This document shows, piece by piece, positions 16,689 through 49,372 of a stretch of 64,000 nucleotides of DNA. A program made the translations under genes and the position numbers. Location of the stretch: sequence record MZ358387, one strand, 5' to 3'. Position 1 is the stretch's first letter. The number at the start of each line of letters is the position of its first letter. This stretch comes from Shigella virus Moo19. The notes below the pieces were generated by a model, which did not search any database, was not told the DNA's origin, and saw nothing but the letters and a program-made list of their open reading frames with translations.

Positions 16689-16708
16689 GTAGCAAGTGCT
16701 TACCTTAA

Positions 16709-16736
16709 TAGCCCTGCAATGCAGGGCTATTTGTGG
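16709..16736 (+). terminator. Rho-independent terminator (tagccctgc-aat-gcagggcta + ttt)
   Basis: Read directly. Confidence 0.6.
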
Positions 16737-16746
16737 AAGTTCCTTC
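16731..16746 (+). repeat. 16-mer ttgtggaagttccttc (copy 1), near-palindromic core ggaagttcc
   Basis: Identical 16-mer at 17055-17070. Confidence 0.6.
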
Positions 16747-16764
16747 AATAACTCAGGAGTCTTA

Positions 16765-17025
16765 ATGGAAGTTTTATCTGCATTACTGGTTCTGGTAATT
16801 GCTCTTACAGCTTATCTGTTACCAACTATCATCGCATTCGTTCGTGGTCATGCTTCTAAGTGGGGCATTTTTATCACTAATTTACTGTTGGGCTGGTCAC
16901 TGATTTTCTGGATTGTTGCACTGATTTGGTCACTGTCCAATAAAGGACAATCTCAGACTACAATCGTTAACGTTGGAAGTGGTAACAGCTACAACGTGTC
17001 TCAAACGAGTCAGTCTGATAAGTAA
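16765..17025 (+). CDS. Superinfection-immunity (T4 Imm-like) membrane protein
   Basis: Motif LPTIIAFVRGH...NLLLGWSLIFWIVALIW; ATG 16765 with aggag RBS. Confidence 0.6.
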   Translation: MEVLSALLVLVIALTAYLLPTIIAFVRGHASKWGIFITNLLLGWSLIFWIVALIWSLSNKGQSQTTIVNVGSGNSYNVSQTSQSDK

Positions 17026-18992: not shown

Positions 18993-19028
18993 TTGTGTTG
19001 TTTGGTTTGAACAACTCTTAAGGCAAAT

Positions 19029-19301
19029 ATGAAAAAGCTCGCTTTGTACGCAATGATTGCTAGTTGCATCATTACACTGGTTTATGTAATTAAGCTCCAA
19101 TGGTTCGTTGAAACAGACTATGCGTTCTGGCGAATCACAGCCATTACTGCACTAAGTGAAATTGGTCTGTGGTGCTTCTATTACTACGCTCGTGACTACG
19201 AAGGCATCAAAGCACACGAAGAAAATGCCAAGCGTATTGCACGGCACTTTACTATGATGGTTCAGCCATCAGATGAAGACGACTCAGGACAAAAGCAGTA
19301 A
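19029..19301 (+). CDS. Membrane protein (90 aa, two TM-like segments)
   Basis: ORF track; hydrophobicity. Confidence 0.45.
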   Translation: MKKLALYAMIASCIITLVYVIKLQWFVETDYAFWRITAITALSEIGLWCFYYYARDYEGIKAHEENAKRIARHFTMMVQPSDEDDSGQKQ

Positions 19302-19307
19302 ACTTAA

Positions 19308-19334
19308 AGACCTCCTACGGGAGGTCTTTTTTTG
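19308..19334 (+). terminator. Rho-independent terminator (agacctcc-tacg-ggaggtct + T7)
   Basis: Read directly. Confidence 0.75.
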
Positions 19335-19359
19335 AGTCTACTACTGTCCGGGAGGACTT

Positions 19360-19578
19360 ATGCCACATAAATACCGTATTAAAAGCTCTGGTGATTTCGT
19401 CTATGCGTTAGTTTACTCGGACTACGGAGCAGCTAAGTTAGACACCAATGCTACTGGCATTGAGCACAAATCCGTAACCCTGGAAGAGAATGGAGGGTAT
19501 CCATTCTTCACTGTACCAGTTAATCAGTTGGAAGAAATTTATGATGAATCCAAAGGTAATACACAGCAAAACGGGTGA
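19360..19578 (+). CDS. Hypothetical protein (72 aa)
   Basis: ORF track; RBS ggagg. Confidence 0.35.
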   Translation: MPHKYRIKSSGDFVYALVYSDYGAAKLDTNATGIEHKSVTLEENGGYPFFTVPVNQLEEIYDESKGNTQQNG

Positions 19579-19888
19579 AGCTGTAGAGCTTGATACCATT
19601 GCTAAAGTGGAAGATATTCTGGCTTGCCCTGCAAATATTGCATCACTTTGCCAGTGTATTGTTGCACTGTCAGAGGAGCGTAAGCTATGGCTTGAACCAA
19701 ACAAAGAGATGGTTCAGGCTGGGATTGCTGAAGTACATAGTACTTTAGAAAATATTTCTCAGGAAAACTACGAAGCTGGGGAATGTAGTCATGTTGGTCA
19801 TATTGACCTTGATACAATGACTGATGACCAGGCTTCTGATTTAGCTGTATTCGTCCTGCAAGCTATGGCAGGTAAGCGTAGTGGTTGA
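19541..19888 (+). CDS. Hypothetical protein (115 aa)
   Basis: ORF track frame 19490-19888; ATG 19541. Confidence 0.4.
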   Translation: MMNPKVIHSKTGEAVELDTIAKVEDILACPANIASLCQCIVALSEERKLWLEPNKEMVQAGIAEVHSTLENISQENYEAGECSHVGHIDLDTMTDDQASDLAVFVLQAMAGKRSG

Positions 19889-20022
19889 GCTGTTCAACCT
19901 AATATCCCCACTGATGTATACCTTCAATGATTTTCTTGGAACATACGGCACTGCTTTAGGTAGTGCCGTAGTTCTATTCGCTCTTTTCTATTAAAAGCTG
20001 CATTCTATCTGGAGAGTTAAAA

Positions 20023-22647
20023 ATGCAAGTCGCAGACAATCAAGAATTAACTACCTCTGCTACCCTCGGTGGCAAACAAGCTATCTCATTCGGTATCTCG
20101 GATGACCCGGCATTCTTTCACGTACTGAGTTCATCTCTGTATAACAATCCAAATCTGGCTGTTGTACGTGAAACCATCTGTAATCAGTGGGATGCTCACA
20201 TTGAAGCAGGTAAGACACACCTGCCCGTGCTAATCGTCATTGATAAAGACAACTTTATTACCTTTCGTGACTACGGTAAAGGTATCCCATCCGATAAGAT
20301 TGGTGCTGTATATGCCACTTATGGGGCATCCACCAAGAAAGCTAATTCCAGTGTAACTGGTGGCTTTGGTCTGGGATGTAAATCACCATTCGCTTATACA
20401 GACAGCTTCCAGGTTACTTCATGGAACCAGGGTAAGATGTCTATCTATAACGTTACTAAGTCCTCGGTAGAGACTGACGGTAAGCCGGGTGTAATCCCAA
20501 TTATTACGGACGTTGCCTCTGACGATACTGGTCTGGAAGTTAAATTCCAGCTTCGTCCTGAAGATGTGAACGAGTTCATTCGTTACATCGAATCCATTGT
20601 TTATAACGGTGAGATTAAAGCAATCCTGCGTAGCCCTAAGATGGTACTCAATCCTGATGGTAACCGTACCATCGAGCTGCAAGACCGTAGTCTGCCTGTA
20701 CTAGGTATGTCCTTTGAACCTGGTTCATATGACATTAACGGTACATGGCATCGTAGCTATATGGGCAGCAGTGCTGTTTATGTACGTTATGGTAACGTAA
20801 TGTATCCGGCTGTTGAAAGTCCGGCTACAGAGGAAGCACTGGGAGTTATTCATAACTTCATGAACATCATTGGTGCTAACCGTATTGTTGTTCAAGCTGC
20901 TCCATCTACTCTGGCTATTGCCCCAAGCCGTGAAACACTGTCGAACCAGAAAATGACTGACGATGGTATCGTAGACATCTGTGTTGACCTCGTTGACCGT
21001 CTGGAAAAGGAAATCAAAGCAGGTATCCCAATAGCTTTGAAAGAAATTGAAGAAGGTATTGCTAAGTCTAATCACTTTAGCATGTATGACTGGGAAAATT
21101 TCTTTGATTACGTATCTAACACTCGTGTTAGAGGCTACATGAAGTCAAGCCTGTGGCGTAAAGCATCTCGCCACTATCGTAAACACTGGAAAAAACTGTC
21201 TAATAAACGATTCTTTGAACAAGAAGAGTTTAAAGGTATTCACTTTAGTCGTAGTCGTGCAATGACTGCACTAAAGCAATCCCGTTCAAGCCAAAGACAG
21301 GATTATTTTCTGAGCTTCCTGCAACGCTATGTTGTACTGCCTAAGCTGTATGAATGGAAGTTGTGTAAGCTGAAATGGTCTGGTCACGTTGTTGGTCGTT
21401 ATCACAACTGCATGTTAGTAAAGCATGGGTTACGTACCTATATGCGTACCTATTCTGACCTGGCTGTGCTTCAGACACTGGTAACCAAAAACGTAATCAT
21501 TACCCGTCGTATGTCAGATTGTCATGAATCGTTTTATTACCATCCTGATTATCATGGTTCAGCATGGGAAGCTAAATGTGGTGGCAATAGTGGTGTATAC
21601 ACTACTAAAACTGCTCATGTTATTCACATTGGAGCCAAGAAAGGCGAAGCTGAGGAGGTAGCTGCTAAGTATACTGCTCTGGGCTATCAAATCATTGACC
21701 TTACCAAGCAAAATGATTGGGATAAACCAGCAGAAATGCGACGTATTGCTACTGCATCGGCTAATGCTAAACGTGCCAAGAACAAAGCTGATTTATTAGC
21801 TGCTGGCATGAAAGGCTCTGAACCAAACCGTTTAATTTCAATTAACTGTGTGCTTAATAAGCGTAGTGGTATTGACCGTGATACCAAAAAAATCTATGAG
21901 TTCGATTATATCGACCCTGATTTTGCTGCACCAGAAAAGTGGAAACAATATGGTCACGTTGACGTAGAGAATCCACTCTATTACGTAGAACTTAAAGAGA
22001 TTCGTTCTGGGCGTCCTGAACAGAATCCTGACATTGGTTCTATGCACCAATGGACTGATTTAACTGATGAAGTTAAAGCAGTAACCGTTGTCTGCCGTAA
22101 TAAAATTGAGGTTAACAAAGCCATTAAACGTGGTGCTGTGCATCTCGATGACAAACGCTACAAGGAAGTGCTGGACATTGTTAAATCCAAAGAGTTCAAG
22201 AAATACGTTACTTATGAACGTATTGGTATTCTTGAATATCTGAACATGGAGGATGGTCAGTACCAAGAGTTGCTTAAGCTGCTCGGCATTAAAGCTAAGG
22301 TATTCGATAATCTGGTTCTAAGACCAGAGTTCGAGTGGGCATATAAATTCCTCAATTACATGGACTCCAGTAAGAAACGCAAATTGGTTTCTCTGGGTTG
22401 CATGGAAAAAGAGGAAGATATTGACCAGTACCTACCATTAACTCACTTGAAGACGTTCAAAAACCTTCAATCGTTACTGGATATCAAGGGTATCTTCCAA
22501 GTAAGGGAAGTAAGTGGTCCTGCTATGTATTACTCATCTGTGCAGGATTTAATCAACTGGCTTACTGAACACCCAGAGGATATTCCTGGGTATAAGATAC
22601 TCATCCGTAACTGTTTAACTAAACGTAAAGGTATATACACAAGATGA
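20023..22647 (+). CDS. rIIA-like protein with N-terminal GHKL-type ATPase domain
   Basis: Bergerat-fold motifs (RETICNQWDAH; RDYGKGI; TGGFGLGCKSPF); size and pairing with downstream gene. Confidence 0.55.
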   Translation: MQVADNQELTTSATLGGKQAISFGISDDPAFFHVLSSSLYNNPNLAVVRETICNQWDAHIEAGKTHLPVLIVIDKDNFITFRDYGKGIPSDKIGAVYATYGASTKKANSSVTGGFGLGCKSPFAYTDSFQVTSWNQGKMSIYNVTKSSVETDGKPGVIPIITDVASDDTGLEVKFQLRPEDVNEFIRYIESIVYNGEIKAILRSPKMVLNPDGNRTIELQDRSLPVLGMSFEPGSYDINGTWHRSYMGSSAVYVRYGNVMYPAVESPATEEALGVIHNFMNIIGANRIVVQAAPSTLAIAPSRETLSNQKMTDDGIVDICVDLVDRLEKEIKAGIPIALKEIEEGIAKSNHFSMYDWENFFDYVSNTRVRGYMKSSLWRKASRHYRKHWKKLSNKRFFEQEEFKGIHFSRSRAMTALKQSRSSQRQDYFLSFLQRYVVLPKLYEWKLCKLKWSGHVVGRYHNCMLVKHGLRTYMRTYSDLAVLQTLVTKNVIITRRMSDCHESFYYHPDYHGSAWEAKCGGNSGVYTTKTAHVIHIGAKKGEAEEVAAKYTALGYQIIDLTKQNDWDKPAEMRRIATASANAKRAKNKADLLAAGMKGSEPNRLISINCVLNKRSGIDRDTKKIYEFDYIDPDFAAPEKWKQYGHVDVENPLYYVELKEIRSGRPEQNPDIGSMHQWTDLTDEVKAVTVVCRNKIEVNKAIKRGAVHLDDKRYKEVLDIVKSKEFKKYVTYERIGILEYLNMEDGQYQELLKLLGIKAKVFDNLVLRPEFEWAYKFLNYMDSSKKRKLVSLGCMEKEEDIDQYLPLTHLKTFKNLQSLLDIKGIFQVREVSGPAMYYSSVQDLINWLTEHPEDIPGYKILIRNCLTKRKGIYTR

Positions 22648-24734
22648 AAATCGAGCTGATTTCAATAATCGCACTCGCCGTAGACAGCCGTAACATCACG
22701 CTGTGGAAACCTGATGGTTCCACGGTAGTCTTCCCACAAGGCGACCTTCGTGTCGCCCGTATCGTTGCCGAAGCTAAAGCCAAAGGTCTTGAACCAGGCA
22801 AGGTAATTGAAGTGAATATCGCACCAGAAATCGCAGGTAAAACTGAGTTCACTGATGCAGAGAAACACACTAACGGCCTCGTTAAATTCTTCAAAGTGGC
22901 TAAAGCCAAACTCAAAGAGTTCTTTGAAGACGAAACCGAAGTCCGTCCTGCACCACAAGTACCTGATATCAAAATGGGTAGCCCATGTCAGGTAATGGTT
23001 GATAAAGCAATGGATACCTTCCTGGCTATCCAGGCTAATCAACCAGAGGTAACTGTAGAGTATGGGGATTACGACCGCTGTAATCACCTGCTGTGGATTA
23101 CCGGGTATGACAAAGAGCATGACCGTGTTGGCTTAATTCGTTTCATTAGTGAGACTCTGAATTACAGCCCGGAACGTGCAACTACTCATGCCAATCTGGA
23201 ATGGCCTATTGCCCTGAAAGCTGTGTCTGATGATGCACTGGTAGAATTTACCAATCGTCTACAACAACTTAAGGGTGTGCACTGGGCAGTTACTAATCGC
23301 AGTGTAACGCCGGATGCTTATGAAGAACCTAAAGTTACTCAGGACAAACCTGCTGAACCAACTAAGCAAGAAAAACTGACTGCTGCGTCTGAGAAGCTGA
23401 AAGCACTGGGTGCTGTAAGTACCGATGATGCTTCCTTCCACGAAGATGTAAAAGAAGACGAAGCAATCGTAGCTGTTACGAGTGCTGGTGTAGTCCCTGG
23501 TGTTGAAGGGCTGCAACGTCATCTGCGTCAGGCAAGTAAGCTGAAAGACTACAAGGGCTTTAACCGTTTCCTTGAGCGTCTGGCTCCGGTAGTTAAAGAC
23601 CGTCGTCACTCAGTTGAAGACCTGATGAAATTCATGGAAAAAGCAGAACTTCCTATCGCTGATGATGGTTGTATTCTGTTCCTGAAACGCCTGAACTTCA
23701 AAGAGACTGGCGTAGATGGTCGTCGTGTATTCGTGGATTGTCACTCCGGTAAAATTAAACAATGGGTTGGCATGAAGGTACAGGTTCGTGAAGACCTGGT
23801 AGACCCTGACCGTCGTAAAGACTGTTCTAACGGTCTGCACGTTGCTGCTATGAGCTATATTACTGGCTTCAGCGGTAATGTAACCATCCTGGGTAAAGTA
23901 GCACCTGAAGACGTATTTGCTGTTCCTGAGTACAGCACCAACAAGATGCGAGTAGCTGCATATCACATCATTGCTGAGTTGCCTGAAAAAGAACGTAGTA
24001 ACGTCTGTAATGGCGTTTACCTGTCCAAAACGGACGTAGGTAAAAAACTACTTAACGATGCAATTGTGGGCAACCACACTGCACCAACAGACCTGGTAAT
24101 GGTTGGTGGTCATATGGGCAGCAACCTGAAATACACCCAGTTAACTGGCGGTACTGTAGAGCAAATCCGTACCACTGCATCGAAAGAAGCATTGGATATG
24201 GAAGAGTCTCTGTCACCAGAAGCTCTGAGTGCTGAACCAGTGAAAGCACTTGATGTCAAACCCGTAAACAAACCAGCGGTTGAAATTAAACCTGCTAAGG
24301 CTCCTACTGTGAAAGAACAAATCCTGGAACTGGTAAAAGAGTTCCAAAATGCAACTTCCCCGGAAGATAAGCTGGCTGCTGCTGACCTGCTGGTCGAACT
24401 ACGTGGTAAGGCTAAGAAGCCGTGGGGTGCATTCGGCGTCGATAGCTCTATCGTCGATGAGATTGCCAAAGTACGTTCCACTCAGGAACGTCTGGAAGAA
24501 GCTAAAGCCGAACCAGTGAAAGTAAGCAAGCCCGTTAAGGCTGCTGCTAAACCTGGTAAGGGCAAACATGCTGATACCATCCGTAGCTGGCTCAATGATA
24601 GTGGTATGTCTGACTATCAGAAAGCCCACTCTATTCATGACCTGAAACGTGCTGCTAAGAAATCTTATGCTGCACTGGGTCTTACTGAAGAAGAGTGCAA
24701 AGCTATTGACAAGCTTAAGCATCATCTGAAGTAA
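22644..24734 (+). CDS. rIIB-like protein (by adjacency to rIIA-like gene)
   Basis: ORF track; translational coupling (ATGA overlap) with rIIA-like gene; no independent motif. Confidence 0.35.
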   Translation: MKIELISIIALAVDSRNITLWKPDGSTVVFPQGDLRVARIVAEAKAKGLEPGKVIEVNIAPEIAGKTEFTDAEKHTNGLVKFFKVAKAKLKEFFEDETEVRPAPQVPDIKMGSPCQVMVDKAMDTFLAIQANQPEVTVEYGDYDRCNHLLWITGYDKEHDRVGLIRFISETLNYSPERATTHANLEWPIALKAVSDDALVEFTNRLQQLKGVHWAVTNRSVTPDAYEEPKVTQDKPAEPTKQEKLTAASEKLKALGAVSTDDASFHEDVKEDEAIVAVTSAGVVPGVEGLQRHLRQASKLKDYKGFNRFLERLAPVVKDRRHSVEDLMKFMEKAELPIADDGCILFLKRLNFKETGVDGRRVFVDCHSGKIKQWVGMKVQVREDLVDPDRRKDCSNGLHVAAMSYITGFSGNVTILGKVAPEDVFAVPEYSTNKMRVAAYHIIAELPEKERSNVCNGVYLSKTDVGKKLLNDAIVGNHTAPTDLVMVGGHMGSNLKYTQLTGGTVEQIRTTASKEALDMEESLSPEALSAEPVKALDVKPVNKPAVEIKPAKAPTVKEQILELVKEFQNATSPEDKLAAADLLVELRGKAKKPWGAFGVDSSIVDEIAKVRSTQERLEEAKAEPVKVSKPVKAAAKPGKGKHADTIRSWLNDSGMSDYQKAHSIHDLKRAAKKSYAALGLTEEECKAIDKLKHHLK

Positions 24735-24793
24735 CCTGTTCAAGAACCCTCAGTTGAAATATACTGAGGGTATCTTTGAAGAGGAAATGTACT

Positions 24794-25189
24794 ATGTCTA
24801 AAGTTTATCGTGTTAATCGCAAAGCAACTGATGAAGACATCATTAAGATGAATGCAGTTGGTTTATCCCTGGCAACTATTGCAAAGACGTTGGGGATTCA
24901 TCCCACAACAGTTACTTTGCGATTGCGTTCTCTAAATATTGAACCTGCCGACACCCGTCGGACGTTCATGGAGAATGTACTAACACCACTGCCCACCCAT
25001 GTGGTCGATTGGTTAGCCGAGCAAGTGGGTCCACAATATGAGATTCGCTCATATGTTCGTGACCTGCTTATGGAGGCTTACAACAATCGCCACCAATATC
25101 AAGAGAGTGCTCATGAGCGATTCCTCAAACGATACGCTGGTACAAACTCAGAACTGGTTTCTGAAAGCAGTACCAAACCCAACGAGTAA
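24794..25189 (+). CDS. Helix-turn-helix DNA-binding protein
   Basis: HTH-like segment GLSLATIAKTLGIHPTTVTLRL; ATG 24794 with gagga RBS. Confidence 0.45.
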   Translation: MSKVYRVNRKATDEDIIKMNAVGLSLATIAKTLGIHPTTVTLRLRSLNIEPADTRRTFMENVLTPLPTHVVDWLAEQVGPQYEIRSYVRDLLMEAYNNRHQYQESAHERFLKRYAGTNSELVSESSTKPNE

Positions 25190-25574
25190 AAATATCAGTA
25201 CCCAAATTGGTTGCCATTTAGAAGAAGTTCTAGAAATGGTAGATGTATTAATGGGGGAAGATTCATTTTCCCAGATGGCTCTTACCGATTTACGCCATGC
25301 ACTACGAACTGTGTCAGAGCGTATGAAAAACAATTCAGATGCCATTTATATTAATCAGGAAGACAGGGAAGAACTTCTGGACAGTCTTGCTGACCAGATT
25401 GTTACAGCGACTGGTGTCGGTGTTTTCCTGGGTATGAATGTACCCGGTGCTCTCGATGAAGTTAACCGTTCGAACTACTCTAAGTTCGAGAATGGGGAAC
25501 CAGTATTCAACGAGAACAAAAAGGTCATGAAAGGCAAAGACTATACGCCACCTGACCTGAGCAAATTTATCTAA
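25113..25574 (+). CDS. Putative MazG-like nucleotide pyrophosphohydrolase (all-alpha NTP-PPase)
   Basis: EExxE-type motif HLEEVLEMVD and downstream acidic residues; overlaps upstream gene by 77 nt. Confidence 0.4.
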   Translation: MSDSSNDTLVQTQNWFLKAVPNPTSKNISTQIGCHLEEVLEMVDVLMGEDSFSQMALTDLRHALRTVSERMKNNSDAIYINQEDREELLDSLADQIVTATGVGVFLGMNVPGALDEVNRSNYSKFENGEPVFNENKKVMKGKDYTPPDLSKFI

Positions 25575-25595
25575 CCCTCTACGGAGGGTTTTTTA
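25573..25595 (+). terminator. Rho-independent terminator (aaccctc-tacg-gagggtt + tttt)
   Basis: Read directly. Confidence 0.65.
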
Positions 25596-25604
25596 CTGGA
25601 GAAA

Positions 25605-26918
25605 TTGATGTTTTCTAAACCTACCAAGTCCCCGTTGAACCAGGGGCAGAATGCTGTCGCAGACGCTTTCTTTGACTTCCTGCTTGACCCTAATCAGTCA
25701 GAGTTCAATATCAGTGGACCTGGGGGTACTGGTAAGACTTACCTCATGTCTCACCTGATTGATGACACGATGCCACGTTACATGGAAACATGTGAACTGA
25801 TGGGTACTAAACCCATGTATCAGGAAGTTGTCATGACAGCGACGACTAACAAGGCTGCTGAAGTACTGGCTCGTGCTACTGGGCGTCCTACGTCTACGTA
25901 TCACTCATTCCAGGGACTGACTGTTAAGAACGACTTTAAGACTGGTGACAGTAATGTAATTCCGTCCAAGTCATTCAGTGTTAAACGAAACAAAATCATC
26001 TTTATTGATGAAGCGTCAATGATTGACCGTCAGTTACTGAAGTATGCCCGTGAGGGAACTCATAACAGTAAGCTGGTATTCGTAGGTGATGCAAGTCAGC
26101 TACTGCCAGTAAAAGAAAACAAGTCACCAGTATATGCTGGTAACATCCCGACTCACTATCTGACCCAGCAGATGCGTACCGACCAGCCAGAACTGAAAGC
26201 ATTGCACCAGCAACTGCGAGATACAGTTAACGGCGTAACGGGATTCCTGCCAATCAAATGTGTACCGGGAGTTATCGACTGGGTACAAGGCGAGGAGATG
26301 GAGAAGCTGGTACTTGACCACTTCACCCAACCTACTGATAGCCGTATTGTGGCCTACACGAATGACCAGGTTATTAATTACAATAACTACATTCGTGGTG
26401 CTAATGGTCACACTGGCGAATACAAAGTAGGTGAGAAACTCGTTTCTAACTCTGCTGTAGCAGTTACTGCCGAAGACCGTCTGTCTATTGAACAGGAAGT
26501 CGAAATCATCGACCAAGACAGTGCAACTCGTATGATTCGTGTCGTTAACGACATTGAATTAGAAGTACGGGATAGCACTCTTGACCTGGGTTACGGTGGT
26601 ATCGTCAGCAGTGTACCTGTTCCGACTGACCCAGATTATTTCAACCGTTTGGTTAAATGGCTGGGTAAGGATAAGAACTGGGAACCCTATTTCCGTATGA
26701 AGGAAACTATCCCAGACCTCCGTGCTCTACATGCCTGTACTGTTCACAAGTCACAAGGCTCGACTTACGACACTATCTTCATTGATGCTTCCGACCTCTC
26801 AAGCTGTCGCCAACCTGACATGGTTGCCCGTCTGCTTTATGTCGCAGTATCCCGTGCTCGTAAACGAGTTGTGTTCTATGGTGACCTGGCTCAGAAATAC
26901 GGTGGCCTTACCTACTAG
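25605..26918 (+). CDS. Dda-like SF1 DNA helicase
   Basis: Walker A GPGGTGKT, Walker B IIFIDEASM, motif TVHKSQGSTYD, VAVSRARKRV. Confidence 0.75.
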   Translation: MMFSKPTKSPLNQGQNAVADAFFDFLLDPNQSEFNISGPGGTGKTYLMSHLIDDTMPRYMETCELMGTKPMYQEVVMTATTNKAAEVLARATGRPTSTYHSFQGLTVKNDFKTGDSNVIPSKSFSVKRNKIIFIDEASMIDRQLLKYAREGTHNSKLVFVGDASQLLPVKENKSPVYAGNIPTHYLTQQMRTDQPELKALHQQLRDTVNGVTGFLPIKCVPGVIDWVQGEEMEKLVLDHFTQPTDSRIVAYTNDQVINYNNYIRGANGHTGEYKVGEKLVSNSAVAVTAEDRLSIEQEVEIIDQDSATRMIRVVNDIELEVRDSTLDLGYGGIVSSVPVPTDPDYFNRLVKWLGKDKNWEPYFRMKETIPDLRALHACTVHKSQGSTYDTIFIDASDLSSCRQPDMVARLLYVAVSRARKRVVFYGDLAQKYGGLTY

Positions 26919-37484: not shown

Positions 37485-37566
37485 GGGGGAGTAGTCAAGC
37501 GGTCGAAGACGGCAGACTGTAAATCTGTTATCCCACACGGTAGTTCGAATCTACCCTCCCCCACCA
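37485..37566 (+). tRNA. tRNA-Tyr (anticodon GTA), 10-nt variable region, CCA encoded
   Basis: Hand-folded cloverleaf: acceptor GGGGGAG/CTCCCCC, T-loop TTCGAAT, anticodon loop CTGTAAA. Confidence 0.65.
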
Positions 37567-37567
37567 C

Positions 37568-37642
37568 GGTAAGTTAGCTAATTGGTGAAGCGGCTGACTG
37601 TTAATCAGTGATAGAGTGGTTCGAGTCCACTACTTACCGCCA
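37568..37642 (+). tRNA. tRNA-Asn (anticodon GTT), CCA encoded
   Basis: Hand-folded: acceptor GGTAAGT/ACTTACC, T-loop TTCGAGT, anticodon loop CTGTTAA. Confidence 0.7.
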
Positions 37643-37647
37643 CATTA

Positions 37648-37724
37648 CGGAGTTTAGCTCAGTCTGGTAGAGCATCTGCTTTGGGAGCAGAGGGTCGTAG
37701 GTTCGAGTCCTGCAATTCCGACCA
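37648..37724 (+). tRNA. tRNA-Pro (anticodon TGG), CCA encoded
   Basis: Hand-folded: acceptor CGGAGTT/AATTCCG, D-arm GCTCAGTCTGGTAGAGC, anticodon TGG. Confidence 0.7.
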
Positions 37725-37730
37725 AACAAT

Positions 37731-37806
37731 TAGGGGTTAGTTCAGTTGGTAGAACATCGGACTTTGATTCCGAATGTCACAGGTTCGAATCCTGTACCCC
37801 TTGCCA
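37731..37806 (+). tRNA. tRNA-Gln (anticodon TTG), CCA encoded; position 1-72 is T-T (unpaired)
   Basis: Hand-folded: D-arm GTTCAGTTGGTAGAAC, anticodon loop CTTTGAT, T-loop TTCGAAT. Confidence 0.6.
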
Positions 37807-37808
37807 AA

Positions 37809-37884
37809 TGCTTCATAGCTTAGTAGGTAGAGCACACCCCTGATAAGGGTGAGGTCATTGGTTCAAATCCAATAACGGACGCCC
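37809..37884 (+). pseudogene. tRNA-Ile(GAT)-like element with non-complementary acceptor stem (possible pseudo-tRNA)
   Basis: D-arm, anticodon arm (CACCC-CTGATAA-GGGTG) and T-arm are canonical, but 5' TGCTTCA cannot pair with 3' AACGGAC. Confidence 0.4.
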
Positions 37885-38840: not shown

Positions 38841-38872
38841 AAAGCCCCTCTAATGAGGGGCTTTTTTATTTT
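38841..38872. terminator. Bidirectional terminator (aaagcccctc-taat-gaggggctt flanked by A-run and T-run) between convergent + and - transcription units
   Basis: Read directly; T/A tracts on both sides. Confidence 0.7.
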
Positions 38873-41800
38873 AGTTTACCAGATTCATCCAAGGGTTGAG
38901 GTTATGAGCACGTAAGCCCTGACCCAATCCGATAGAGTAATCCAGTCTACCATCAGCAGCAGCCGAGAACAGGTTATCCTGTAATGGCAGACCAACGTTA
39001 CCAAACATGGTAGGAGTTGGAGCCAGCATAGCCATAGCTGCATGAACAGGGTTATTACGAATCATGGACACTGCAACTTTAGTAGAACGAATCTTAAAGT
39101 TATAGAACCACATCAGACCCATGCTTTCCATGTAACCACGGAAACGACCCGGCAGACGGTCATAGTTAATGAACTCTTCGGTAACACGACCCAGAGCTTC
39201 TTCCTTACTCTTACCTTTACGCTTAGTCAGTTCATCATAGATGATTGCTTTAGCAATAAAGTCAGAGTACTCAACCGTCTTCTGGATACCCTGGAACAGA
39301 GCAGTATCCTTAGTGATAAGTGCATAACGACCAGCAGTTTGCAGCTTCTTAGGCAGCTTATCTGCTAAACGCTGCATGTACTCCTGTACCTTACCATCCG
39401 GGATTAACAGGTCATCACGAGAGATACCAGCATCAGCAATAGAAGAGAACTCACCAGCTTCCAGCAAAGGCCAGATACTCATACGCTTATAGCTATCATT
39501 GATGGACTGAATCTCAGCTTTCAGTTTACGAGCCTGGTTCGGATTAGTAGTTGCACGAAGTTCTGCTTCAGCATCAACCTGGCGAAGACGAGACTTCATA
39601 TACTGGTTAATCTCAGCAGTCTTCTGAGGGATACCTTTAGCAATATCCTTAACTGGAACACCACGGGCAACCATCTGATAGAGGTTAGCCAGGAAGTTCA
39701 CAGCAGGAACCACGAGAGACTTGACCACGATTAAGGTCTTAGCCTCACGTACAACCGTCTGAGTGATATTCTCACCCTGCATAAAGTATTTGTATGCACG
39801 GTTGCCAAATACGCCCAGCATTGCTTTCTTGAAGGTATCCAAAGTCTCAGGTGACCAACGAGAGTTACCAGTCCATACATCACCAACAGAAGCAGCACGA
39901 TAACCAAGTGCATCATTCAACATGTCACGACGTACCCACAGTTCACCATTACCAAACAGTGACTCAGCTTTCTGACGAGTTTCTGCATTCATCAGACGCA
40001 TAGCATCAGCAGTAACTGGGTCAAGTTTAGAACCAAGAAGGTTAATGTACTGGCTCTTATTGCTGGTAGAATCTGCCATGTCCTTCTCGTACATAGCGTG
40101 AAGATTTTCAATCAGAGCATCGTTAAACTTCTGGGCTTTAGCTTCTTCTACCTGACGACCTCGCCATACACCAATTGCTTTAGCAAGGTTATCCTCACCA
40201 GCAATGTGAGTCAGCATGTTAGGGTCAATAGAGTGCTCATAAGCAACCACACGACCATTGCCATCATAGATAGGCATCAGTGGTTCATTACCACGTTCAC
40301 CCTTCGCCAGAGCTTTGGTGATACGGTCAACGGAAGGCTTGTCAGTAATACGACCAGCAACCATTGTTCCCATTGTGAAGCCAGTACCAACATCCACACC
40401 ACCAGCAGTATTACGAACGTTCTGGAGAATACCCTGTGAGTATGGAGCACGAGCAGCAACCGGGCTGAAGTAGTAACCACGACTACGAGTACGTTCACCA
40501 GAGCTACCCTGATAACCAGCAATACGAGTGAATGACTTCTCACTCAGTTCGTTAAACTGGCTGTCTTCTGCAACAATCAGGTTAACACCCTGCTTAGTCT
40601 CAGAAGGAATGTAGCCTTTGTAGTGGTTCAAACGAGCACGGTCATCATTCTGTGCTTTACGTTTCTCTTCCACACGCTGGCCTACCAGATAGGAAGTGAC
40701 AAAGTCCATACCTTCGGTTTCAGTCTGAGCCAGGGAAGCTAATGCCTCACGGTCAGCCTGACTCATTGCTTCGATGGCATACAGAGTAATCAGCTTGTCT
40801 AAGGTGTCCACATCAACGGTAGATTTAACGCTGGTACGCTCACCTAACAGACGGGAGATTGCCTCAGCATTACGCAGCAGGTTGTTACCGACAGTACCAT
40901 TAATCATGTACTGAGCCAGTTGCTTAGACTTACGGTTAATCAAAGGCCAGTTACGTCCTGCCTGATTCTGGAGGTCAGCTTCCAGCTTATTAACCAGCTT
41001 ATCCATTTCTTTCTGTGAAGACAGCAGGTCACGAATTTCACCCAGACTCATGGTGTCACGCAGTACAGCAAGGTCAGTTTTACCCATACCAGTGTGCATA
41101 GCTTTCCACTCTGCATCAGTCAGCTTACGGCTGAACTTAGAAGCAATAGTGGTAGGCAGATGCTCACGGAATTGCTGACGGTCAGCCTGTACCTGAGAGC
41201 GAACAGCTTTAATCATGTCATAGACAGAAGCATTCGACTTAGTACGACCTACGATGTCATTAACCAGGTCATAGAAAGGTTGCCATGCTTTTCCCTGGTT
41301 CATTGCAGCCATAACACCCTGTGCAACTTTCTCACCGTTCTTCTCAGTAGCAATAGCAGCTACCAATTGAGCAGCATGAGCAGTTGCCTTAACCAGTGGG
41401 TTCTTAGCATTAGCAGCAACATCACGAGCAGTATCCAGTGTGGCATCAGCCAGACGTTCTACACCATCAACAATATATTGGTTAGCACGGTCAATCATAT
41501 TCCCAGTTGGGGTAGCAACAGAGTCATAGAAGGACTGAGCATTCAGGCTGGATTCCATAATAGTTTCTGCCAGAGCATCAATACCTTCCTGAACGTTAGT
41601 TGCTTTGGTATCACCAGCAACACGCTTGTTCAGGCTATCCATTGCAGCTACGCCAATGTTAGTCAGCATTGCATCAATAGTATTACCGGATGCTTTATCT
41701 GCTTTCATAACAGGCATGTCAGTCAGTACGTTACGTACCTCTTCGCTTACCATTGCCAGACCAACAAAGGTAGGCAGTAAGGAAGAACGACCCTGAGCAT

Positions 41801-44800
41801 CAAACTCAATATTGTTAGCACCCATCAACGTATCGAACTTCTGTTGAGCATAGTAACGGTCAGCAGGGTTAGTGCTGTTCGGGTCTGCCATGAAGTCTTC
41901 TACTTTCAGGTTCTTGGTAACGTGAGTGTAATACTCCTGAGCACGAGCCAGAGCAGCAGGATGAATTGCAGCCTCAGTTGCTAGTGCAGCAACAATGTTG
42001 GTGAACAGACGACGTTCTTGCATGTTCATAGTAAAACCATGCCCCTGAACATCACGAGTTACCTTAACTGCATTCACTACTGCGTCAGAGAATTTACCCT
42101 TACGCATATGTTGCTGTACCGGGTCATTACCCAGGTAGTTCGTAATGAGACGGTCAAAGGTTTGACCCAGTGAAGTAAGACGGTCATTGTTGCCATAAGC
42201 AGTGCTATGGAACAGGGTAGCCTCAGCAGTAACCGGAGCAACCGGAGGCTGTGAACGCATCACTACAGCAGAGTTAAACAGCAGACCGGAGAACATATCT
42301 TCACCGTAAGCAGGGGCTTTCTTACGACCAAAAATGAGGCGTTTAATTGCTTCATAAACATCTTTAACCATCCTGGTAAGAGCAGTGGTTTTCTTCTGCT
42401 TCTTAATCAGTTCATGGTTGGTTAAGCCCCATGCCATGTACTCATTCAGTGCAGCAGCTTTAGCCATTGCTGGGTCAATGAAACCGTTGGACAGATGACC
42501 ATTGATAGTATCCAGTGCATCAGCGTAAGCCTCACGCATAGCCGGAGTATCTTTGGATACATCCAGACTACGGAACTGTTCCATCAGATTCTCGATGTTC
42601 TGTACAGCTTCATTGGTCTGGCCTTGATAGTGGTCAAGTACAGTCTCAAAAGTAGAAGCATGAACCAGTTCATGAATCAAGGTTTCCATTGATGGGCTAA
42701 CCAGGTAGACAGTCTTATCTGCAAAGTTAGTCCAACCATAGATATTACCTGCATTTGCAGCTTCAATATCTTCTGGAGCAGGACGCTCTACGTTACGTTC
42801 CATTGCATACTGGTCAATCTGGTTCACGTTACCGTAAACAACCTTGTAGCCTTTAGCAGCCAGTGACTTCTGAATCTCATTCAGTACAGCAGCCTGTTCA
42901 ACAGGAAGGTTGGACTCTTTAGCCAGTTTGTTAATAGCAGTCTGAGACAGCACACGAACACCAGACTTCAGAGCACGGCCTACAGTATCAAACTTATTAG
43001 TATCGGCTACTGGAGTCTTCTCAGCTTTACGAGCCTCTTTACGAGCCTGCAATTCAGCATCGAATAGCTCATTCAGTTTTGCTACTTGCTGGTCAACAGT
43101 CAGACCATCCAGAGAGATATTACCGTTGTTCACATAAGGGGAACCAACAGCAGCCATCTGGTCAACAGTAGTCTGTACCTGGTTCATTACCTTGTGACGG
43201 ATATCGACACCCAGAGCAATGTTACGCAGGTTACGCTCAATAAGATTAACACCTGCTTTCTCAATCATATCAATCTTATACTGCCTGTCACCATCAACAC
43301 GACTGATATGAGAAAGTTGTTCAAAATCCAAAGCAGAACGGGCAATACTATCAATTGCTTCATCTGATAACTTATTGAAATCTACATTTTTTACAAACTT
43401 AGAGAAGGAGTCATACACATTCTTGATAGGGTTACCCTGCCATGAAGTGTATACAGCTTCGTTAGCCTTACGGCTTGCATCAGTGATGTCATTGATACCG
43501 ATGTTCATACCATCAAAGATTTTGAGAGTATTTTTCGGTGCACCTTTCATAATAGAAAGGGTCTGCATCATCATGCCGTCACCAGTACCAATCGTCATGA
43601 AAGGAATACCAGCAACACCAGCTTGTGACGGTGCATAGATGCTCATTGGCACACGCATACGGTCATCAAAGTTGGTAGCCAGAACCTGGTTAGCAACATC
43701 AGTATTCTCAGAACCAGCAATGTAGAAAGTCTGGGAACCAGTCTCAATCATTGGAGCTAAGTCAGACAGTGAAGCCTGAATATCGTTAAGCTCTTTCTGA
43801 GTTAAGAAGTCACCCTTCTTCCAGTTAGGGTCTTTTTCTTTTTCTGCCAGCTTCTCCTGGACACGTTGCTGGAACATGTCTTGCAGAACCAGAGACTGAA
43901 TCTGGGTAGCTTTCTGAAGCTGTTCAGTGGAGTGCATCAGCCCTTCACCAACAGTATTCTGAATACCCTGTCTCATTGGTTCAACGAAAAAGTGCAGCAT
44001 GTTCTCTTGCAGAGACTTCAGTTGCTCACCTTTGACAGTGAACTTCTGAGGGTCAATCTTGCCAGACATAGCAGTACCAGTGTCTTCAAGAGACAGTTTA
44101 CCTTTACGCATAACTGGAACAGTACCAGTCAATGCTTTCATGTCTTCAATGAAACGACCGAGCATAGCCTCAGCATCGGCCTCAGATGCTGCCTGCTTGC
44201 CGAACATTGCCATAGCCGGGGAAATGTCCGGGTTCTGTGCACGGGCTTGCAGAACGTCGCTGAAGCGTTCGTAGATGGCATCAGTAATTGCACTCACCAT
44301 CTTGCCTGCAATACCACGAGCACCGGAACCATAAATGGTAATGGTCAGTGGGTTCTTGGCAATGCCACGTTTCAGTTCGAGGTTGCCTTCTTCATTGATG
44401 TTATAGTCAGGAATGAACAAGTCCATCAGAGAGGACAGATGATTCATCTGAGTATTAACAGCCGGGTTATTGGCATAGGTATTTCGCAGGTTAGTCAGTG
44501 CAGCTTTCAGACCGTTAGTGGATGCTTCGTACAGGTCAACGCTATCGTCAATAGAACGATGTTCGTTCATCGTCTTACCAGCACGACCAAAGAATAGACC
44601 ACCCTTAGCAGTATTCTGTACCCATTCTTTGGTGAACTTACCACCAGTCATCAGCATCATTGCGTTAATCGGACCGTTGGTTACACCATCAGCCTCAACG
44701 TACAGTGGAGTGTTGAACTTAGACTTGTCTTCAGCATTCAGGTAACGGGCATACTCCATCAGAGCCATGAGAGCTACGAAGGATTTATCACCACCCAATG

Positions 44801-47800
44801 CAGTATTCAGAATCTCAACAGAGTTATCTGGCAGGTTCCCAGTTTTATCGAAATCAACCATCATATCGACAGCAGGTTTCAAATTGCCTTCCAGTGCAGC
44901 AGTCAGTTTTGCTGACATTGCCTCACGAGACATGTTGTGAACCTTGATGCCCAATGCCTGAGCCAAGCCAACCTGGAAATCAGAGAAGGTCTGTGAGTTT
45001 TCATTGGACAGGTCAATAGTAGAAAACGTAGGCAGAATAGCTTCACGAACCAGCTTACTGGACTGAGGATTATTCTTACCAAGCATCTGCATACGACCAA
45101 CACGAGTCATGTTGTAGGCATAGTGGATTGGAGTTTCCAGTCCGTTTTCCTGTGCACGAGTTTGCTCTACCACACTAAACAAGGAATCATAAGCCATAGC
45201 TACTGACAGGTTTTTACCTTCCAGTGACTTAGCAGTATTCACATTCAGCAGTTCAGGATTAAGCGTACCAGCACCCATCAATTCCAGAATCTTGTCACGA
45301 CCCATAGCCTCATAGAAGTTAACCATAGGTTCATGAATACGGAACTCAGTAGCCTGTTCTGCTTTCAGAGCAGCTTTCTGTTCCGGGGTATTCTTAACAG
45401 CAGGGTTGCGTAACTGAGTCTGAGCCACAGAAGGTACGTCGTCACCGAAGTACATTTTCTCTTCTGGTTCTACCAACACAGCTTCTTCAATTGCTGTAGG
45501 GAATTTATTGATAGGGTCATTGTCTGCCAGCTTATCAATGGTATACAGACCAACAGTCTTAGTGGAGTCTGGGTCAATTTCAGAGACATCTAGCATAGTC
45601 TCAGTAACTTCACCTGCTTCAATAAGAGCAGACAGAATCTCAGTTGCCATAGCAACAGGGATACCTTTGGTATAACCCAGTGGTGCATTAGGGTTACGGT
45701 CAAAGCCCCAGTAAGATTCAATTTTCTGAGCCAGTGAGTTAGTAGCTTCAACGAGAGTCTGAGCATTCTCAAACATCTCAACTACACCTTCCGGTAACAG
45801 AGCCTGTTCAATACCAGTAATAGCAGCCACGTCTTTAGCATCTTTAACGGCAGCATTCTGAGTAGCAGTCAGTCGCCATTGCAGACCAGCAAGTACGGCA
45901 GTTTCAAGCAGAGAATCGTTGAACTTAAAGCTATTGCCATCTGGTTCAACAATATTCAGCAGCTTACCACCAACCCAACGGTTAGCTTCAGTGCCCTCAG
46001 CAAAACGCTTACCTACGTTCTTGTTAGACAGGAACTTAGCCAGTCGGTCATTCAGAATGGATTTAATGTTTTCACCCGTGTTCATCAGGTCTTTATAACG
46101 ACCAGATACATCAGGGGTAAGAGCAGTATTCTCACTCTGAGTAAACGTTTCGAAACGTGCATTAGAAGACAGAGCCTGACCAATATCTTTCATTGGAGAC
46201 TCGGAACCAGTGGTACGAGACTTAGGTTCAGCAGGTAATGAGTAAGCAATCTTGAGGTAATTTTTTACCCCAGGCTGGCTGACATCAGTACTCCCAACCA
46301 AATCAGGATAAGCAGCGTCAATACCACTACGAGTGGATTCCACTTCATTAGTAGTTTCCTCAGTATTTTCAGTAACATCCTCGATGCTACCCTCATTGAT
46401 GAGGGTAGCATCCTTTGCCTTTTCGGATTGAGGCTTAGTTACTTTCTCTGGTTCTGCCTTAGACTCAGTAAAAGGAGCACTATTTTCTACCGTCGATTCC
46501 CTATTAGGAGTTACAGTAGGTGCAGCCTCCTGAGTTTGTGCAGGAGTTTCGTCAACTTGATTCACTGGTTCATTAGTCTGTTGGGATTGAGCAGCGTCAA
46601 GATTGCCCTGACGGAACTCTTTAACCACCTGGGCAGCAGGCTTGTCCAGACGTGAATCCAATGAGGTAACATTGATATGAGAAACGTTAAGCTCCGGGTA
46701 AGCCGTAGCAAGTGCATTAGCAATATCAGCTACGGTTTTGGCTTCCAGTCCTACTTGCTGGGCAAACTTAACCGACTTGGTATCGTAAGGATTAACACCG
46801 AGTCCAGTACGACTTCTTACCCATTCACGGGAAGGGGTGAGGGCTTGGTAATGGACAGACTTATTCTTATCCGCATTCCCAGAAATCAGATGTTCATTCA
46901 ACGCTCCGACCTTGTTCTGCATGTGCTGGGCGAACTGCATAAAGTCGCTCAAATAAGCGGAAGCCAAATCGAAGTTACCAGAGTTATACGCAGACCGAAT
47001 GCGTTTAGCATGTTGCAACGCAGAGTACTGGCCTTCATTAGAACGAGACTCGTCGGTTTTAATCTGTTTACCCACAATGTCTTGAGGCCGTAAACCAAGC
47101 TGTTCAGCTTTGGTATCAAACTCACGTGCTCCCTGTAATAGAGCAGCAGCGGATTGCAGGGCAGCACGTTGACGATTGTTCAACGTAATCTTGCCTTCAC
47201 TCGCATGTTTCAGAACCATGTTCACTGAATCAGCGTCCAGTACTTCCGGGCTTACGTCAGCAGCCATTGCTACGTTGTTAGCCTGATTCTGGTCTGCTAC
47301 ATCTTCGGTCACATTCAGATTACCTTGTTCAGCTTGTTCCTGAATCATGGAATGAATGGCACGGAATGCACGAAGTACCTTTGGAGTATTCTGGATGTTA
47401 GCCATCAGACCCGAATACTGGTCGAGCACAGCATTAGCAGGACTATCTTTAGGCAGATTGTTCAGTGCAGCAGGGTCACGGTTAACGAAGTCTTCCATCT
47501 GCATAACCATGTCGTACATATTGGCAGCAGCTTCCATCATCTGGTTCGGGTCTTCAGTAGTGTTAACTACATCAGCCAGTTTCTGGATTACCTGAACTCG
47601 GTCAGTGGAACCGTTAACAGCTTCCTGAACCACAGGAGAAGCATCAGCAAATTCTTCCGGGTTAATACGGGTAGCATTAACCAAATCACTTGCATACTGG
47701 TGTGCAGCAGCCTTCTCTTCAGGAGAGATGTCCATTGCTTCAACAGCATCAGCCATAGTTGCCTGAGCAGTATCTGCTTGTGCAGCAGCTTCCTGAGCAG

Positions 47801-49310: not shown

Positions 49311-49372
49311 AGCTTGTTTCCTGTTCAAACTTATATCTATAAGAGAACTCACTGTACATTAAGTGAGGGTAA

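Follow-up and report, generated by a model that had tools for sequence, protein, structure and literature searches.

A putative anti-exclusion rIIA/rIIB gene pair of the N4 type in Shigella virus Moo19

Among the rII gene pairs described so far, those of coliphages N4 (gp33/gp34) and T4 (rIIA/rIIB) provide the closest points of comparison for the genes at positions 20023 to 24734 of the 64 000-nucleotide (nt) stretch of Shigella virus Moo19 (sequence record MZ358387), referred to here as the window. Knockdown of RIIA or RIIB by CRISPRi-ART in phages T4, MM02, EdH4, SUSP1 and N4 had no effect without Rex, and the same knockdowns in these five phages lowered the plating efficiency on Escherichia coli expressing lambda RexAB (PMC11879866). 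The rIIAB locus of N4 is also mentioned in the BASEL study (PMC8594841). In addition, RIIB of phage T6 alone activates a Lysobacter CARD/NLR-gasdermin system, the escapers of which are rIIB null and then RexAB-sensitive, and RIIB by itself is toxic when expressed (bioRxiv 10.1101/2023.05.28.542683). Our study indicates with high probability that the pair in the window is an N4-type module orthologous to gp33/gp34 and serves as an anti-exclusion pair. The finding is real and its reading supported, but it is also already known, as the pair is annotated in dozens of N4-like genomes.

The rIIA gene, the orthologue of N4 gp33, occupies 20023..22647 on the plus strand and encodes 874 amino acids (aa; 99.7 kDa) from an ATG start. 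The rIIB gene, the orthologue of gp34, follows at 22644..24734 on the same strand and encodes 696 aa (76.8 kDa), likewise from an ATG. An earlier note, made from the sequence of the window, had placed the pair at 20023–24734, and both open reading frames are found exactly there. Full-length matches were obtained for rIIA against phrog_2979 ('RIIA', E=1.4e-236) and for rIIB against phrog_2886 ('RIIB', E=3.8e-201), and long reading frames with profile matches of this order (1e-236 and 4e-201) are far beyond chance.

The likeness of the first protein to T4 rIIA, which the earlier note had recognized and proposed to examine by profile comparison along with that of the second protein to T4 rIIB, was borne out by BLASTP against T4 rIIA (NC_000866; E=4e-27, 29 % identity over aa 17–330) and by hhalign, with a probability of 99.7 % over aa 14–323. 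A further profile, phrog_612, matched with E=3e-63. The homology to T4 reaches past the generic ATPase domain and takes in a second domain and a PSRE loop, and end to end the protein is 40 % identical to N4 gp33 and 52 % identical to rIIA of the Gamaleyavirus ECBP1. The module held in common with T4 rIIA spans 20062..21012 (+; aa 14–330) and comprises a GHKL/Bergerat ATPase (aa ~29–196) and a second, beta-rich domain, after which comes the invariant loop P301-S-R303-E304 that T4 rIIA also possesses. That the 874-aa protein begins with a Bergerat-fold ATPase had likewise been proposed, and this held: Pfam HATPase_c_3 matched aa 47–155 (E=3.8e-8, 33.9 bits against a cut-off of 25 bits), and in an alignment of 68 homologues, extending down to 31 % identity, E50, N54 and D57 of the N-box, D83-x-G85-x-G87 of G1, the glycines of the G2 motif G113-G114-F-G116-L-G118, and G170 were invariant in 68/68. 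The ATP-binding site is intact, with all catalytic residues present.

The remainder of rIIA is of a different character. Column identity in the alignment is 0.5–0.8 and drops to 0.15–0.4 past aa 325, and hhalign found no alignment to T4 rIIA beyond aa 323, the remaining 544 aa being variable. This C-terminal part (21013..22644, +; aa 331–874) is lineage-specific, fast-evolving and basic (pI 9.8 and 8.5). Its variability is in line with the literature, where rIIA is portrayed as a GHKL domain with a variable C-terminus (PMC7824862).

The second protein had been assigned as rIIB-like only by position, and in this respect the earlier note was too cautious, as the protein also has sequence homology to T4 rIIB. 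BLASTP aligned aa 290–449 with T4 aa 159–310 (E=2e-15, 28 % identity, in the core alone), and hhalign gave a probability of 99.1 %, again with the core as the only part aligned. The protein is 48 % identical to N4 gp34 end to end and 69 % identical to the ECBP1 rIIB. A look-up of the exact sequence of the window rIIB returned no record, and a 98 %-identical relative from a metagenome contig was taken instead; precomputed annotation assigned Pfam PF26926 (Phage_T4_rIIB) to all listed homologues, including this one.

A predicted model of rIIB, with a mean predicted local distance difference test score (pLDDT) of 80.7, showed four parts. The N-terminal domain (22644..22937, +; aa 1–98, pLDDT 74–95) is kept in all Schitoviridae rIIBs sampled, with an occupancy of 0.92–1.0 in alignment A1 and presence in 120/120 distant sequences, and hhalign detected no counterpart of it in T4 rIIB. 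A small alpha/beta domain is inserted at 23085..23294 (+; aa ~148–217) with the order beta-alpha-alpha-beta-alpha-beta and a fold like that of ClpS and of the C-terminal domain of ribosomal bL12; this insertion is found in the N4/G7C-type lineage only and has no family match at the level of sequence. The universal, family-defining core (23511..23993, +; aa ~290–450) is the sole part in common with T4 rIIB, and all 2523 phage records that match rIIB do so on this core. No analogue of the core was found among solved structures, PDB sequence searches with the single protein and with a profile returned nothing for rIIB, and comparison of the rIIB sub-domains with Pfam gave nothing useful. In T4 rIIB, several helix-turn-helix (HTH) matches fall in aa 7–50, all of them sub-threshold; such an N-terminal HTH is absent from the window rIIB according to Pfam searches of the whole protein and its pieces, and an HTH is not a defining feature of the family.

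The fourth part, the C-terminal tail (24201..24731, +; aa ~520–696), contains a unit of ~80 aa that is duplicated in tandem. Each copy consists of a Lys/Pro-rich disordered linker beginning at AEPVK and then helices that end in AKK[PS][WY]xA[FL]G, a motif conserved across Schitoviridae rIIBs, and the pLDDT is <50 in the linkers and >90 in the helices. Self-alignment of the tail gave a local score of 54, whereas shuffled sequences scored 27.8 on average (sd 5.0) and 0/500 of them reached this score (z=5.2). The duplication is mirrored in the DNA by repeat D12, and in a repeat scan of 19000–25700 the short repeats were at chance level save for one that matches the duplicated tail.

Several features suggest that rIIA and rIIB work as one unit. 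The TGA of rIIA (22645–22647) and the ATG of rIIB (22644–22646) overlap as ATGA in the context caagATGAaa. Translational coupling, which the earlier note had stated as given, is thus plausible but not proven. The two genes are adjacent and co-oriented here, and rIIA likewise precedes rIIB in T4, N4, ECBP1, Sf17 and the Ounavirinae. In phage RB43 (locus L007, 1–3150, minus strand) the two are fused into a single protein of 1049 aa, which matches the window rIIA with E=8e-26 and the core of the window rIIB with E=4e-16, and because an RB43-type fusion exists, phrog_609 ('RIIB', 1055 positions) matches both window proteins. The overlap, the kept gene order, the fusion and the double match of phrog_609 are evidence that rIIA and rIIB act together. 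No membrane-spanning segment was found in either protein and, because the Kyte-Doolittle mean over 19-aa windows never exceeds 1.27, neither is an integral membrane protein.

The genomic background also conforms to N4. The window encodes a giant virion-encapsidated RNA polymerase (3493 aa; 38871–49352, minus strand), which matches phrog_2206 with 3943 bits and on account of which the window is identified as a Schitoviridae (N4-like) genome. The gene order is likewise of N4 type, running from thyX through small genes to rIIA, rIIB, gp35, gp36, helicase, gp38 and DNA polymerase, and is collinear with that of N4 and ECBP1. The phage is an N4-like coliphage (Schitoviridae, Enquatrovirinae, near Gamaleyavirus), and the genes are its rIIA/rIIB module. 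Its nearest named relative is Escherichia phage Jgk1, with 82 % nt identity over the replication and virion RNA polymerase region, and the nearest sequence overall is a 69.6-kb metagenome contig (European Nucleotide Archive ERZ28615549 scaffold_69) with 93–94 % nt identity.

Within this conserved order the rII genes stand out by their divergence. With respect to ECBP1 and N4, in this order, rIIA shows an identity of 52 % and 40 % and rIIB one of 69 % and 48 %, compared to 88 % and 72 % for the neighbouring DNA polymerase, 86 % and 68 % for the helicase and 80 % and 65 % for the thymidylate synthase. Faster divergence of rIIA and rIIB than of the neighbouring genes fits an arms-race role.

The requirement for the N4 orthologues only in the presence of RexAB marks them as a counter-defence module. 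From 40–48 % full-length identity, we infer that the pair of this phage would be dispensable on ordinary hosts and required on RexAB hosts. The claim in the earlier note that the pair counters prophage exclusion therefore has direct published support, in the N4 orthologues tested on RexAB hosts.

Rapid-lysis plaque mutants were the form in which T4 rII mutants were first isolated, and 'RIIA/RIIB lysis inhibitor' is the product name in PHROGs and in many records. If these PHROG and RefSeq labels were taken literally, the pair would delay holin triggering and raise burst size, and lysis inhibition is indeed known from two coliphages, one of which is N4 (bioRxiv 10.1101/2025.11.12.688109). However, none of the rapid-lysis mutations of N4 map to gp33/gp34; all of them affect membrane proteins of the lysis cassette, namely the gp63 pinholin and the SAR endolysin, and the list of T4 lysis-inhibition genes given in the same study (rI, rIII, rV/t and spackle) omits rII (bioRxiv 10.1101/2025.11.12.688109). 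The lack of a membrane-spanning segment in both window proteins and the lack of a knockdown phenotype when Rex is missing (PMC11879866) argue in the same direction. A function of the pair as a lysis inhibitor is not supported, despite the database label, and we regard it as very improbable. The genes also lie amid those for replication, with thyX on one side and the genes for helicase and DNA polymerase on the other, which would suit a role in DNA replication or topology, with rIIA as a topoisomerase-, MutL- or MORC-like clamp ATPase, rIIB as its DNA-binding partner and Rex evasion as a side effect of altered replication intermediates. Topoisomerase-type matches to rIIA (Topo VI-B profile, E=1.7e-5; phrog_543 topo II, 7e-7), the adjacency of topo II genes to both T4 rIIA and the RB43 fusion, and the N-terminal HTH in T4 rIIB all favour such a role. 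Yet the topoisomerase and MutL matches span the generic ATPase region only, those to phrog_543 and TIGR01052 being confined to aa ~39–185 and far under their cut-offs, and Pfam found no Toprim, nuclease, DNA-gate or other DNA-processing domain. The window rIIB is without a detectable HTH, and exclusion does not depend mainly on DNA binding by RexA (PMC11077077). Knockdowns in N4 were harmless on Rex-less hosts (PMC11879866), which places the pair outside core replication; overall, a replication or topology role appears quite unlikely.

The divergence of rIIA and rIIB relative to their neighbours could also be driven by pressure from other defences that sense rIIB, or its effect on the cell, in which case the pair would be chiefly a liability. 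The triggering of the Lysobacter CARD/NLR-gasdermin system by T6 RIIB is a precedent for such sensing (bioRxiv 10.1101/2023.05.28.542683). However, the N4-type rIIB is only 28 % identical to the T-even protein, in the core alone. Furthermore, rIIB is kept in 2523 phage records and must therefore confer a benefit, and a liability would supplement the anti-exclusion explanation rather than replace it. That the pair is chiefly a liability is, in our view, unlikely.

Several considerations weigh against the anti-exclusion reading and the mechanism attached to it. The anti-Rex function would be carried over from an orthologue that is only 40–48 % identical, and the fast divergence could instead reflect relaxed constraint on a non-essential gene. 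Most of each protein is lineage-specific, with 544 aa in rIIA and about 530 aa in rIIB lacking an equivalent in T4, so that the function of the N4-type pair may go beyond that of the T4 pair or differ from it. The mode by which rII blocks Rex is not known for any phage (PMC12894663, PMC11077077), so a clamp model of the kind described below comes from the fold alone. Finally, the sequence similarity of rIIA to the middle domain and catalytic loop of Hsp90 is not statistically significant.

This last point concerns the likeness of rIIA to Hsp90, which among GHKL ATPases is the one that the protein resembles most closely. Comparison with the N-domain of E. coli HtpG by hhalign gave a probability of 96.1 %, and an alpha/beta region at aa ~430–565 is weakly similar to the Hsp90 middle domain. 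Identification of the middle of rIIA as an Hsp90 M-domain was rejected as suggestive only, since hhalign of aa 196–600 against HtpG 215–500 gave E=0.34, and HMMER stretches against GRP94, with a similarity to the later part of the Hsp90 middle domain, gave i-Evalues of about 0.6, which is not significant. The best alignment path, at the same non-significant E=0.34, places the PSRE loop of rIIA on the NVSRE loop of HtpG. No match to Hsp90 was found across the whole protein, the NCBIfam HSP90 model PRK14083 scoring 24.9 bits against a cut-off of 455, and no Hsp90 C-terminal dimerization domain was detected in rIIA.

Under the anti-exclusion reading, rIIA might be an ATP-driven clamp of the Hsp90/GHL kind, in which ATP would bring about the dimerization of two N-domains, so that the clamp closes like those of Hsp90, MutL and topoisomerase II ATPases, and in which Arg303, in the SRE loop, might sense the gamma-phosphate. 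It would perhaps work in a complex with rIIB, both as soluble or peripheral-membrane proteins, and this complex might hold or remodel a macromolecular target such that a Rex-type sensor stays untriggered or its membrane channel is kept closed. Proteins, nucleoprotein complexes and membrane components are all candidates for this target. A bolder version would see rIIA as a phage-borne offshoot of the Hsp90 lineage, retaining the N-domain, the SRE loop and a remnant of the middle domain, with a protein client rather than DNA as the substrate of the complex, and with the ClpS/bL12-like insertion of rIIB as an adaptor that docks onto a host machine (ClpA, a translational GTPase or the Rex sensor). 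We consider this version doubtful, but if true it would provide a concrete, testable biochemical model for the 70-year-old rII problem.

The flanks of the pair contain several signals. A Shine-Dalgarno GGAG, read off the sequence, lies at 20011..20014 (+), 8 nt 5′ of the rIIA ATG. Further 5′, at 19944..19970 (+), a terminator-like scan located a G+C-rich hairpin with a 12-pair stem followed by a T-rich stretch; this may be a terminator that sets the rII unit apart from the small genes 5′ of it, as suggested by its match to the consensus alone. Just past the rIIB stop, at 24747..24770 (+), the 7-bp hairpin CCCTCAG...CTGAGGG precedes the ATG of the gp35-like gene at 24794; it was seen by direct reading and was not called by the terminator scan. 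A scan for sigma-70 promoters found fewer sites than in shuffled controls. In scaffold_69 (locus L008, 8129–8605), a gene for a 158-aa HNH_3 endonuclease lies between rIIB and the gp35-like gene. At this site the window contains no more than a hairpin-bearing spacer of 59 nt, a difference that looks like a presence/absence polymorphism of a homing endonuclease.

The gene immediately 3′ of rIIB (24794–25189, +; 131 aa) is in the position of N4 gp35 and belongs to phrog_6377, a family of unknown function. It is 83 % identical to N4 gp35 and is thus better conserved than the DNA polymerase (72 %). The possibility that it represents a detached N-terminal HTH of T4 rIIB was rejected, as BLASTP found no similarity and the Pfam HTH matches were weak and sub-threshold. 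Its end is overlapped by a gene for a MazG-like nucleotide pyrophosphohydrolase (25038–25574, +; phrog_671, E=2.7e-34), as gp36 overlaps gp35 in N4; the match begins at aa 25, and the true start is probably an internal Met near 25113. Another gene related to conflict is located 3 kb 5′ of rIIA and encodes a small hydrophobic protein (16696–17025, +) that matches phrog_1039 ('immunity to superinfection', E=2.8e-34). Elsewhere in the window, the sign of the GC skew changes near 38 kb, at the point of reversal in gene orientation, and ARAGORN identified a cluster of four tRNA genes at 37485–37873 (+; Tyr-GTA, Asn-GTT, Pro-TGG and Gln-TTG). Rfam gave a fifth tRNA-like element at 37816–37873 (50 bits, model positions 8–63 only), which may be a truncated or atypical tRNA.

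As an annotation the pair matters little, since thousands of phage genomes are already on record with rIIA and rIIB genes. For those who use this phage, in therapy or in studies of host range, it makes resistance to Rex-type prophage exclusion probable, and the phage may at the same time be exposed to defences that sense rIIB. What our study adds is slightly new and descriptive, namely the Hsp90-like character of rIIA, the rIIB core without a solved analogue and, in the N4/G7C lineage, the inserted domain that resembles ClpS and bL12. Together with the RB43 fusion, these features could aid work on how rII proteins act.

In summary, the pair can be placed against four known systems. Compared to the Hsp90 family (HtpG, GRP94 and TRAP1), only the N-domain of rIIA is clearly similar, and rIIA is not a member of this family. 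RB43 carries the same rIIA ATPase module and rIIB core in the same order, but in one polypeptide rather than in two overlapping genes. The T4 pair resembles that of the window in the N-terminal ~320 aa of rIIA (725 aa in T4), with the GHKL domain, second domain and PSRE loop, in the core of ~150–160 aa of rIIB (312 aa in T4), in the A-then-B order and in the anti-RexAB phenotype, which on the side of the window is that of the N4 orthologues. It differs in that the C-terminal 544 aa of the window rIIA do not align and in that T4 rIIB has an N-terminal HTH, whereas the window rIIB, 2.2 times longer, has an N-terminal domain of its own, the insertion and the duplicated helical tail. The closest correspondence is with N4 gp33/gp34 and the Gamaleyavirus orthologues (G7C, ECBP1 and IME11), which are of comparable length (in N4, 841 and 696 aa), share the neighbours, the gene order and the full set of domains, among them the inserted ClpS/bL12-like domain and the duplicated tail at the C-terminus, and from which the window pair differs in sequence divergence only.

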